Source: a virus (taxonomy: Duplodnaviria > Heunggongvirae > Uroviricota > Caudoviricetes). From it: a stretch of DNA of 7,323 nucleotides. The position numbers are program-made. The DNA lies in the IMG/VR virus record IMGVR_UViG_2671180429_000001. One strand, written 5' to 3'. Positions 1 to 3,000 of the stretch are shown here, piece by piece (within the stretch, counting starts at the first letter, position 1; each line of letters begins with the position of its first letter).

Positions 1-3000
1 CAATGCGCTTACTGATGCGGAATTACGCCGTAAGGCCGCAGATGAGCTTGTCCATATGACTGCGAGAATTAACCGTGGTGAGGCGATCCCTGAACCAGTA
101 AAACAACTTCCTGTCATGGGCGGCAGACCTCTAAATCGTGCACAGGCTCTGGCGAAGATCGCAGAAATTAAAGCTAAGTTCGGACTGAAAGGAGCAAGTG
201 TATGACGGGCAAAGAGGCAATTATTCATTACCTCGGGACGCATAAGAACTTCTGTGCACAGGACGTTTCCGCGGTAACAGGCGCAACCGTAACCAGCATA
301 AATCAGGCTGCGGCTAAAATGGCGCGGGCAGGAATCCTGATCATTGATGGTAAGGTCTGGCGAACGGTGTATTACCGGTTTGCTACCAGGGAAGAACGGG
401 AAGGAACGGTGAGCACGAACCTGATTTTTAAGGAGTGTCGCCAGAGTGCAGCGATGAAACGGGTATTGGCGGTATATGGAGTTAAAAGATGACCATCTAC
501 ATCACTGAGCTAATAACAGGCCTGCTGGTAATCGCAGGCCTTTTTATTTGGGGGAGAGTAAATCGTGGCTGAGTTGATTTTCTCTGCATTGAGGCTTCTC
601 GGTGCTATGTGGATGGTGGCGACGTTCATTGTGGTTGCTGGCTGTTTTGTCCGGTTGGTAGGCGAAGGTAAAGACCTGGTGGGTGTGCTTTTCGGTAGCA
701 TTCTCCTGTGGGTGATTATCGGTGTTGCGCCTGTCGCTGTAGCAAAAATGGCGTGGCGTTTTGTGAGTTGAACTGAGGGTAAGTACCGATGGACGAATCA
801 AGAAAGCAGTTTGAAGAATGGTTTGAAAATTACACCGGATGTGATCCTAAAAATAAAATATACGCCAATATGGTTGAGATGTATTGGCAAGCGTGGCAGG
901 CATCGCGAGCAGCTTTTGAAATTGAGCTGCAAAAGCCAAAGAAAGGCCCACTTCCCGGTGATTATCACATTGGCTATGACACAGGTGCAGAATCACAATA
1001 CGAAAGCGATGTAGAGGCCATCCGCACTGCTGGAGTCAAAGTGAAGGAGTGAGTATGAGCGCATACGAAGAAATCATGTTAGCCCTGCGATTCTTTTTCG
1101 GTGTGGAAGAAGATGAAAACGTAAATGAGATTATCGGGCAAGACCATGACCAGATAGGGACTATTGCAGCTGCACTTGACGATTACAGGAGCGTAAATGG
1201 TGAGGAAACTAACGTTTGAACTAAGAAGCCCCATCCATCAGCAGAACGCCATTCAAGCTATCCAGCAAATTCTTCCAGACCCAACCAAACCAATCGTAGT
1301 AACCATTCAGGAACGCAACCGCAGCTTAGACCAAAACAGGAAGCTATGGGCCTGCTTAGGTGACGTCTCTCGTCAGGTTGAATGGCATGGTCGCTGGCTG
1401 GATGCAGAAAGCTGGAAGTGTGTGTTTACCGCAGCATTAAAGCAGCAGGACGTTGTTCCTAACCTTGCCGGGAATGGCTTTGTGGTAATAGGCCAGTCAA
1501 CCAGCAGGATGCGTGTAAGCGAATTTGCGGAGCTATTAGAGCTTATACAGGCATTCGGTACAGAGCGTGGCGTTAAGTGGTCAGACGAAGCTCGACTGGC
1601 TCTCGAATGGAAAGCGCGATGGGGAGATCGGGCAGCATGACTATCAAATCAAATACGCCAGCACACGACAAGGACTGCTGGCAAACGCCGCTTTGGCTTT
1701 TTGATGCACTGGATATTGAGTTTGGATTCTGGCTGGATTCGGCAGCGAGCGACAAAAATGCTCTGTGTGCTCACTGGCTAACTGAGGCCGACGACGCGCT
1801 AAATTCTGAGTGGATAAGCCACGGGGCAATCTGGAATAACCCACCGTACAGCAATATCAGGCCGTGGGTGGAAAAAGCCGCTGAGCAGTGCATACAACAG
1901 CGACAGACGGTAGTGATGCTTGTGCCAGAGGATATGTCAGTCGGATGGTTCAGCAAGGCTCTGGAGAGTGTCGACGAAGTTCGCATTATCACTGATGGAC
2001 GGATTAATTTTATCGAACCATCGACGGGGCTGGAGAAGAAGGGAAACAGCAAAGGCTCCATGCTGCTGATTTGGCGACCGTTCATCAGTCCTCGACGGAT
2101 GTTTACTACCGTATCCAAAGCGGCATTGATGGCGATCGGGCAGGGCGTCAGAAGGGCGGCATGAGGCGACAGCGAAGAAGTATCACCGACATCATCTGCG
2201 AAAACTGCAAATACCTTCCAACGAAACGCTCCAGAAATAAACGCAAGCCAATCCCAAAAGAATCTGACGTAAAAACCTTCAACTACACGGCTCATCTGTG
2301 GGATATCCGGTGGCTAAGACATCGTGCGAGGAAAACAAGGTGATTGACGCGATGATTTATTCGGGGCTATATTCCTCACGCGCCAGCAAAATCTGGCGTC
2401 GGGATTAGCACCCCGGATGTTTACGGAGCGATATGAGACGCGCCAGCGTCTTTTTTTCATATCGTTTGCACAGTCACATTCGCGATTTATGGCGGGCTGT
2501 GTGGGGGAGCCGAAAGGCTCGCCGGTTTCCGTACCCGGTAGTGCTAACCCCGCACAGTTCGCCACCACGATGATTAGCACCTGACGGTGGCGATAATGTC
2601 CAAATGTACGGAGTTATCGTTATGACCACTCAAATCTCTGTTGAAACTCTCTCCCCGATCACCCATAACCAGATTCCTGTTATTACCACCGAACTTTTGG
2701 CGCAGCTTTACGGCACTGAGCCGGTGCGTATTCGCCAGAATCATCATGAGAACAAAGTACGCTTCGTTGAAGGGAAACACTTTTTCAAAGTTGTTGGTAA
2801 TGACCTTAAAGAATTGCGGGTCGCTTTAAACTACTCACAAAATCCAGTTTCACCCAAAGCCCGCTCCCTCATCCTCTGGACAGAACGAGGCGCAGCACGC
2901 CACGCCAAAATGCTCGAAACCGATCAGGCATGGGATGTGTTCGAAAAACTGGAAGACTGCTATTTCAGCCAGTGCGAGAAAAATACTGGCAAACAAGAGA

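Follow-up and report, generated by a model that had tools for sequence, protein, structure and literature searches.

Introduction

The genes in phage lambda's nin region are chained to one another by overlapping stops and starts (PMC8022706, PMC10695390), and the region is dispensable, as known from the nin5 deletion and from CRISPR interference work (PMC10695390). Here we analysed a small open reading frame (ORF) of 54 codons at positions 1055-1219 of a 7,323-nucleotide (nt) stretch of the IMG/VR virus record IMGVR_UViG_2671180429_000001 (Caudoviricetes), the whole of which is referred to as the window. The window comprises the early-right ('nin') region and the stx1 locus of a lambdoid prophage. 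The 54-amino-acid (aa) product of the ORF has an annotated relative in gp48 (STMMW_03621) of the Salmonella phage BTP1, which shares 89% identity with it and likewise lies directly before ninB. We conclude, with a probability of about 85%, that the ORF is a genuine coding gene, that it belongs to the delayed-early rightward (PR, 'nin') operon in a lambdoid prophage of the Shiga toxin 1a (Stx1a) type, and that it encodes a small acidic mobile-cassette protein. At somewhat less than even odds, this protein may be a stoichiometric binder of a partner. The gene is not new, being present already, uncharacterised, in RefSeq, in the BTP1 record and in PHROG 1603, and is in this respect ordinary and of low novelty; small early genes that can replace one another are numerous in lambda-like phages, and it is one of them.

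Coding evidence for the 54-aa gene

By sequence inspection, the ORF runs from ATG (1055-1057) to TGA (1217-1219), is preceded by AAGGAG at 1044-1049 with a spacer of 5 nt, and begins 2 nt after the TGA (1050-1052) that terminates the upstream ORF (789..1052), all of which agrees with the original prediction, made from the sequence alone. That prediction had also called the ORF unlisted, which is true of the ORF track it was made from but not of RefSeq, where a coding sequence (CDS) with exactly these coordinates is annotated as a hypothetical protein (WP_001277270.1; 7016-7180 in the locus of Escherichia coli 2013C-4974, corresponding to window 1055-1219). The elements of the gene are as follows.

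1055..1219, + strand: CDS of the 54-aa acidic protein (RefSeq WP_001277270.1; PHROG 1603)
1044..1049, + strand: Shine-Dalgarno (SD) sequence AAGGAG of the gene, which is also the last two codons, Lys-Glu (AAG GAG), of the upstream gene
1055..1192, + strand: conserved core, residues 1-46 (alignments, AlphaFold2 model, purifying selection)
1193..1219, + strand: non-conserved C-terminal tail V47-V54, which differs with the downstream gene and has a low model confidence

The length of the ORF is by itself no evidence for a gene, because some 40 ORFs out of the 75 listed for the window reach 54 aa or more, most of them spurious. The evidence is comparative. The product matches the hidden Markov model (HMM) of PHROG 1603 with an E-value of 1.9e-32 and 112 bits, residues 1-53 aligning with profile positions 1-53 of 54. 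The ORF was then taken from all loci at which a homologue was found, which gave 37 distinct homologous DNA versions. Frame +1 is open in all 37, and each of the other five frames is open in 0 to 2. Except for one frameshifted copy (locus L062), the gene is intact at all extracted loci, and the insertions and deletions across the 37 versions are all in frame and confined to the loop between helix 1 and helix 2 of the predicted structure. Of 46 codons, 27 vary at position 1, 21 at position 2 and 44 at position 3. The pairwise ratio of nonsynonymous to synonymous substitution rates (dN/dS) has a median of 0.13 over 341 pairs and a maximum of 0.50. Against distant members, synonymous sites are saturated and dN is only 0.09-0.32; between the window and Dryocola, for example, there are 23.5 synonymous differences over 27.8 sites and 9.5 nonsynonymous differences over 110 sites. 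Protein identity is still 55-60% in unrelated genomic contexts.

The original prediction had staked its case on conservation of the reading frame in related phages and on a coding-type substitution pattern, and had proposed a tblastn search for homologues. The comparison favours coding on both counts, and the search returned nine phage records, BTP1 among them. The alignments thus support a real gene under purifying selection, and the earlier description of a real, tightly packed phage gene is borne out by the comparative evidence.

The start codon was also considered. GTG 1049, which is in frame, would give a protein of 56 aa and is the choice of the BTP1 annotation, was dropped, as the ATG alone is kept in divergent homologues. 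The PHROG 1603 profile begins at the ATG and not at GTG 1049, and all extracted homologues open with an ATG that follows an SD-like stretch rich in purines, even where their flanks are unrelated; in divergent homologues with other flanks this stretch is AGGAG, GGAGG or AAGG. A scan with Rfam placed no RNA family over 1055-1219, and for this reason an RNA gene at this position was dropped as well.

Predicted structure and charge of the product

The product is a stand-alone acidic domain of about 46 aa with three helices, followed by a short unconserved tail. AlphaFold2, supplied with an alignment of 31 sequences, predicted helices at residues 3-15, 20-29 and 33-52 with a mean predicted local distance difference test (pLDDT) score of 92.1 and a predicted template modelling score of 0.76. 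Model confidence is low only at the last residues (mean pLDDT 53), which form a disordered tail. A shallower alignment gave the same topology with a pLDDT of 82.7. The core carries the conserved motifs YEEIMxAL, EIIGQ and HDPIxTIAxALDDYR, and the net charge is about -11 for the window protein and ranges from -7 to -11 among six divergent members. In some relatives the same domain is fused to the portable phage domain DUF551, one of these fusions being annotated as a gene within the nin region of a different prophage, and in one database protein (P0030) the 54-aa domain is fused to a PHROG-343-like C-terminus.

An exchangeable cassette between a conserved left junction and ninB

The features that flank the gene, or are shared with its neighbours, are the following.

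789..1052, + strand: upstream gene, 87 aa, PHROG 343, a frequent and very variable left neighbour
1020..1054, + strand: conserved left junction, in which the upstream gene ends (…IRTAGVKVKE*) with its AAGGAG and TGA stop
1186..1190, + strand: AGGAG, the SD sequence of ninB, inside codons Arg45-Ser46 (AGG AGC) of the 54-aa gene
1200..1640, + strand: ninB, the Orf recombination mediator (Pfam NinB, E-value 2.4e-54; RefSeq start GTG 1200)

In an alignment of the window with BTP1, Sf6 and HK022, the left junction is near-invariant from ATCCGC to GAGTAT. Beyond it, the window and BTP1 are wholly unlike Sf6 and HK022, the former two having the 54-aa gene and the latter two an unrelated 84-aa gene (gp49 and gp60, respectively); homology of the window with Sf6 and HK022 returns at the start of ninB. 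Homology between the 54-aa protein and Sf6 gp49 or HK022 gp60 was looked for and rejected, BLASTP giving no alignment at E-values up to 100. On the other side, the identity of the upstream gene is only 33-100% among loci whose 54-aa genes are at least 96% identical. In these comparisons the 54-aa gene behaves as a swappable mobile cassette that occupies a mosaic slot.

The window has four copies of AAGGAG on its + strand and one on its - strand; of the + strand copies, three stand before real genes (starts 202, 1055 and, for stxA, 5659). The claim that the ribosome-binding site is of unusual quality is therefore sound, but the site does not belong to the 54-aa gene alone, because the junction in which it sits is also conserved in phages with an unrelated gene in the slot; AAGGAG belongs to a conserved linker and is available to any gene that comes next. 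The upstream gene, other alleles of which are named 'phiTE_015 family', keeps its last ~35 nt despite an identity range of 33% to 100%. The gene for Sf6 gp49 (1664-1918 of locus L001) is named 'flagellar protein' in RefSeq, which looks like a spurious transferred name.

At the right junction, the codons for Arg45-Ser46 read AGG AGC or AGG AGT at every locus with ninB directly after the gene. At loci without ninB directly after it, the arginine codon is CGN in 14 of the 16 distinct versions, and the other two read AGG GAT, which forms no AGGAG; the end of the gene overlaps the next start at these loci as ATGA, TGATG or TAATG. Before lambda-type ninB the tail reads NGEETNV, before P22-type ninB it reads GDEANIPASQRSNQK, and it is different elsewhere. 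The tail beyond residue 46 (the last 7-8 residues) is the 5' end of ninB translated in another frame up to a chance stop.

The extent of the overlap depends on where ninB begins. ATG 1197 is turned into AGG or GTG in several close relatives, whereas GTG 1200 does not vary and is matched in the alignment by the ATG of ninB in Sf6 and HK022. Because of this difference in conservation, the start of ninB is probably 1200, the RefSeq choice, which gives 146 aa, rather than 1197. The overlap would then be 20 nt, the 23 nt given originally being correct for a ninB counted from ATG 1197.

Distribution of PHROG 1603 and its genomic contexts

Homologues were searched in bacterial genomes, phage records, viral contigs and protein databases. 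A homologue is carried by 26 out of 5426 complete E. coli genomes, in all of them on the chromosome, and a search of the plasmid collection gave no match to the 54-aa gene. Window 1040-1225 has a 100% identical counterpart on the chromosome of E. coli 2013C-4974 and on those of an O103:H2 strain and of a bovine isolate. By tblastn, 9 out of 50,697 phage records encode the protein, including, besides BTP1, other Salmonella phages and two lytic Klebsiella phages of Stephanstirmvirinae. The Klebsiella phage proteins are 55-59% identical to the window protein, and the copy in KP13-16, annotated as a gene of 51 aa, is flanked by nrdD and nrdG. Protein searches returned 23 clusters, an exhaustive profile (HMM) search returned 29 cluster representatives out of 1.84 billion, and DNA scans added 60 IMG/VR viral contigs together with genomes of Dryocola, Cedecea and Serratia. 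PHROG 1603 is a small family limited to phages and prophages of Enterobacterales, among them lambdoid or P22-like prophages of E. coli and Salmonella. Most phages with ninB are without it: the ninB region is matched by 369 phage records, and only 9 phage records encode the 54-aa protein. Of the Stx-converting phage records in the collection, over 100 of which match the ninB region, none encodes the protein; sequenced Stx phages seldom carry the cassette, although the Stx1a prophage of the window does.

The loci fall into a few contexts. The gene overlaps lambda-type ninB at 31 loci and P22-type ninB at 9 loci. At six further loci the gene is in another part of a nin region and is followed by a ninB-family gene after 4-1245 nt or by DUF1367. 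At about 13 loci, excisionase and integrase genes follow on the same strand at a distance of 109-650 nt, and this position is the distal end of an early-left operon and is equivalent to the exo-xis/ea region. The copies of the Klebsiella phages are placed among early genes of nucleotide metabolism. All contexts of the family are thus early, accessory-gene neighbourhoods.

Operon setting and expression

In the RefSeq annotation of 2013C-4974, the replication genes are followed by two small hypothetical genes, the 165-nt hypothetical CDS and ninB, and then by an adenine methyltransferase gene, ninE, two antirepressor-type genes, ninG, ninH, Q, stxA1a and stxB1a. A terminator-like hairpin lies upstream.

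518-541, + strand: tR2-like intrinsic terminator hairpin with an 8-bp stem containing 6 G-C pairs, followed by TTTTATTT

The 54-aa gene has the attributes of a nin-region gene: it is located between the replication genes and Q and shares their strand, it is downstream of tR2, its start and stop are linked to its neighbours, and it has no promoter of its own. No promoter-like sites were found in 400-1700. Since there is no such site and a tR2-like terminator lies upstream, the gene would be transcribed from PR under N antitermination after induction or infection, as expected from lambda biology. Published RNA sequencing (RNA-seq) data for the BTP1 lysogen give 1-11 transcripts per million (TPM) for the homologue STMMW_03621 in all 17 conditions (PMC7067206, supplementary Table S5); the O, P and nin genes are similarly low, and cI is at about 100-290 TPM (PMC7067206). 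The 54-aa gene is a lytic-cycle gene, because its transcript level in the lysogen follows O, P and the nin genes rather than cI. Its reading as a 'moron' expressed during lysogeny was rejected, since the BTP1 homologue is at background in the lysogen and no promoter-like site was found. Like the rest of the nin region, the gene would be dispensable for plaque formation, given the nin5 deletion and CRISPR interference results in lambda and the absence of the gene from most relatives.

Several other observations concern this operon. The hairpin at 518-541 directly follows a fragment of a helicase gene, at the place where Sf6 annotates a lambda-like tR2 terminator. In 2013C-4974 (locus L005, 3764-6453), the replicative helicase gene upstream is split by an IS3-family insertion, and window 1-492 corresponds to the distal fragment of this split gene; the prophage of 2013C-4974 may be replication-defective. 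Rfam matches at the gathering level were obtained on the + strand for c4-a1b1 (2367-2419), isrK (2380-2456) and C4 antisense RNA (2485-2569). These matches (2367-2569) lie just upstream of an antirepressor gene (2604-3302), and the segment appears to be an antisense-RNA immunity module of the P1/P7 type controlling ant. Immediately downstream of stxB, Rfam small RNA matches were found for STnc100 (6964-7177, + strand) and AgvB (7179-7238, - strand).

Possible function and alternative explanations

The protein would be too small for catalysis and would act stoichiometrically, by binding. Its size, its conserved charge, the early and dispensable neighbourhoods in which it occurs, its patchy distribution and its fusion to DUF551 point to a partner-binding protein. 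Tentatively, and at somewhat less than even odds, we propose that it acts by binding and modulating another protein, probably of the host and less likely of the phage, as an inhibitor in host takeover or counter-defence; the acidic surface may be used against a nucleic-acid-binding target. Of the features looked for in DNA mimics and anti-defence proteins, a conserved strong negative charge is present (-7 to -11, six divergent members). A bolder version, speculative and on balance unlikely, is that PHROG 1603 represents an uncharacterised class of phage inhibitor, an acidic module of 46 residues and three helices for which PDB has no structural relative, that neutralises a host defence protein or a nucleic-acid-handling protein early in infection. 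If it were true, an inhibitor module would be common to temperate lambdoid phages, in their PR and PL early operons, and to lytic Klebsiella phages, and would sometimes be tethered to DUF551.

Several points weigh against the reading of the gene as encoding a functional partner-binding protein. The window copy has Gln33 (CAG, 1151-1153), while nearly all close relatives have Pro33 at this position, which is the start of helix 3 and part of the HDPI motif; the Q33 copy could be slightly impaired, although the effect is uncertain, and some remote relatives carry V, Q or C at position 33. Scans of the 54-aa protein against Pfam, NCBIfam and PADLOC gave no match, and a profile search of PDB sequences gave nothing below an E-value of 0.5. 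With Foldseek, the model of pLDDT 82.7 had no match below an E-value of 2 in PDB and BFVD, and the model of pLDDT 92.1 had none below 2.7 in PDB. A structural or family match to DNA-mimic or anti-defence proteins was thus not obtained by PADLOC or by Foldseek against PDB and BFVD. Acidity is common in small phage proteins and is alone no sign of DNA mimicry. Expression data for the family come from RNA-seq of the BTP1 lysogen only, where the homologue is at the level of a repressed prophage. Literature searches by accessions, locus tags and the PHROG number gave no match, and searching the literature for anti-defence studies of nin regions gave nothing relevant.

The alternatives to a partner-binding cassette protein explain parts of the evidence. 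A role as an accessory factor in the pathway of NinB/Orf recombination, acting with ninB, would account for the translational link between the two genes, and 40 of about 63 loci do directly overlap ninB, in two ninB alleles, with several further loci having a ninB-family gene 4-1245 nt downstream. This role is nevertheless improbable, as ~13 loci stand beside xis-int with no ninB nearby, one locus stands before DUF1367, the Klebsiella phage copies stand between nrdD and nrdG, most ninB phages are without the protein (369 matched, 9 encoding it), and Sf6 and HK022 hold an unrelated 84-aa gene in the slot.

The ORF might also be read as a translated leader, which would only couple ribosomes to ninB and yield a functionless peptide; the ORF holds the SD sequence of ninB, ends 20-23 nt inside ninB, and has an unconstrained tail sequence. 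This explanation is very improbable and has largely been refuted already, given that residues 1-46 are under strong purifying selection (dN/dS 0.13), that 55-60% identity is kept before other downstream genes and in contexts without ninB, and that the product is a confidently predicted three-helix domain also found fused to DUF551. Least probable of all is a chance, unexpressed ORF whose ribosome-binding site merely belongs to the junction of the upstream gene. Frames of this length are common in the window and the AAGGAG junction is conserved whatever follows, but frame-specific conservation, purifying selection and the PHROG match already refute a chance frame, and the 54-aa gene is called by independent annotation pipelines.

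As a genuine cassette gene, the ORF has several implications. A true gene of fewer than 60 codons in an Stx1a prophage means that length cut-offs miss real phage genes. Its biological value is modest and lies in a clean case of lambdoid mosaicism at single-gene resolution, in which the cassette is bounded by a conserved junction carrying a ribosome-binding site and codons near its 3' end also act as the ribosome-binding site of ninB. As a small acidic family with a confident but unmatched predicted fold, PHROG 1603 is a reasonable candidate for screens of early-gene function. The analysis of the 54-aa gene found no link to Shiga toxin production or virulence.

Comparison with known systems

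The T7 proteins Gp5.9 and Ocr are small, early and strongly negative inhibitor proteins, and the 54-aa protein resembles them in size, timing and charge. This likeness serves as a lead only, the 54-aa protein having no detectable similarity to any PDB sequence or structure.

The proteins of the exo-xis region (Orf60a, Orf61, Orf63, Ea8.5 and Ea22; PMC10834534) are of a like kind, being short, early, dispensable, mosaic and often acidic. Moreover, ~13 members of the family occupy an equivalent place just upstream of xis-int, and DUF551, the partner in some fusions of the family, is also the C-terminal domain of the V2 variant of Ea22. The 54-aa protein differs in that, by profile search and Foldseek, it resembles none of the solved exo-xis structures in PDB in sequence or fold, and it is homologous to no named protein of this region.

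The interlinked genes of lambdoid nin regions (1995 work, as cited in PMC8022706) are likewise small, accessory, mosaic and promoterless, with abutting or overlapping starts and stops. However, the 54-aa protein is not homologous to any named nin gene of lambda or P22, and its family also occurs outside nin regions. In the exact same slot, gene 49 of Sf6 and gene 60 of HK022 (84 aa) constitute an 'allelic' alternative cassette that is unrelated in sequence.

BTP1 gp48 belongs to the same family as WP_001277270.1 (PHROG 1603), and the window gene shares with it the position before ninB and the left junction. The two differ in what follows: the window copy is joined to lambda-type ninB and the BTP1 copy to P22-type ninB, with tails of 7-8 and 15-16 residues, respectively, and position 33 is glutamine in the window and proline in BTP1.

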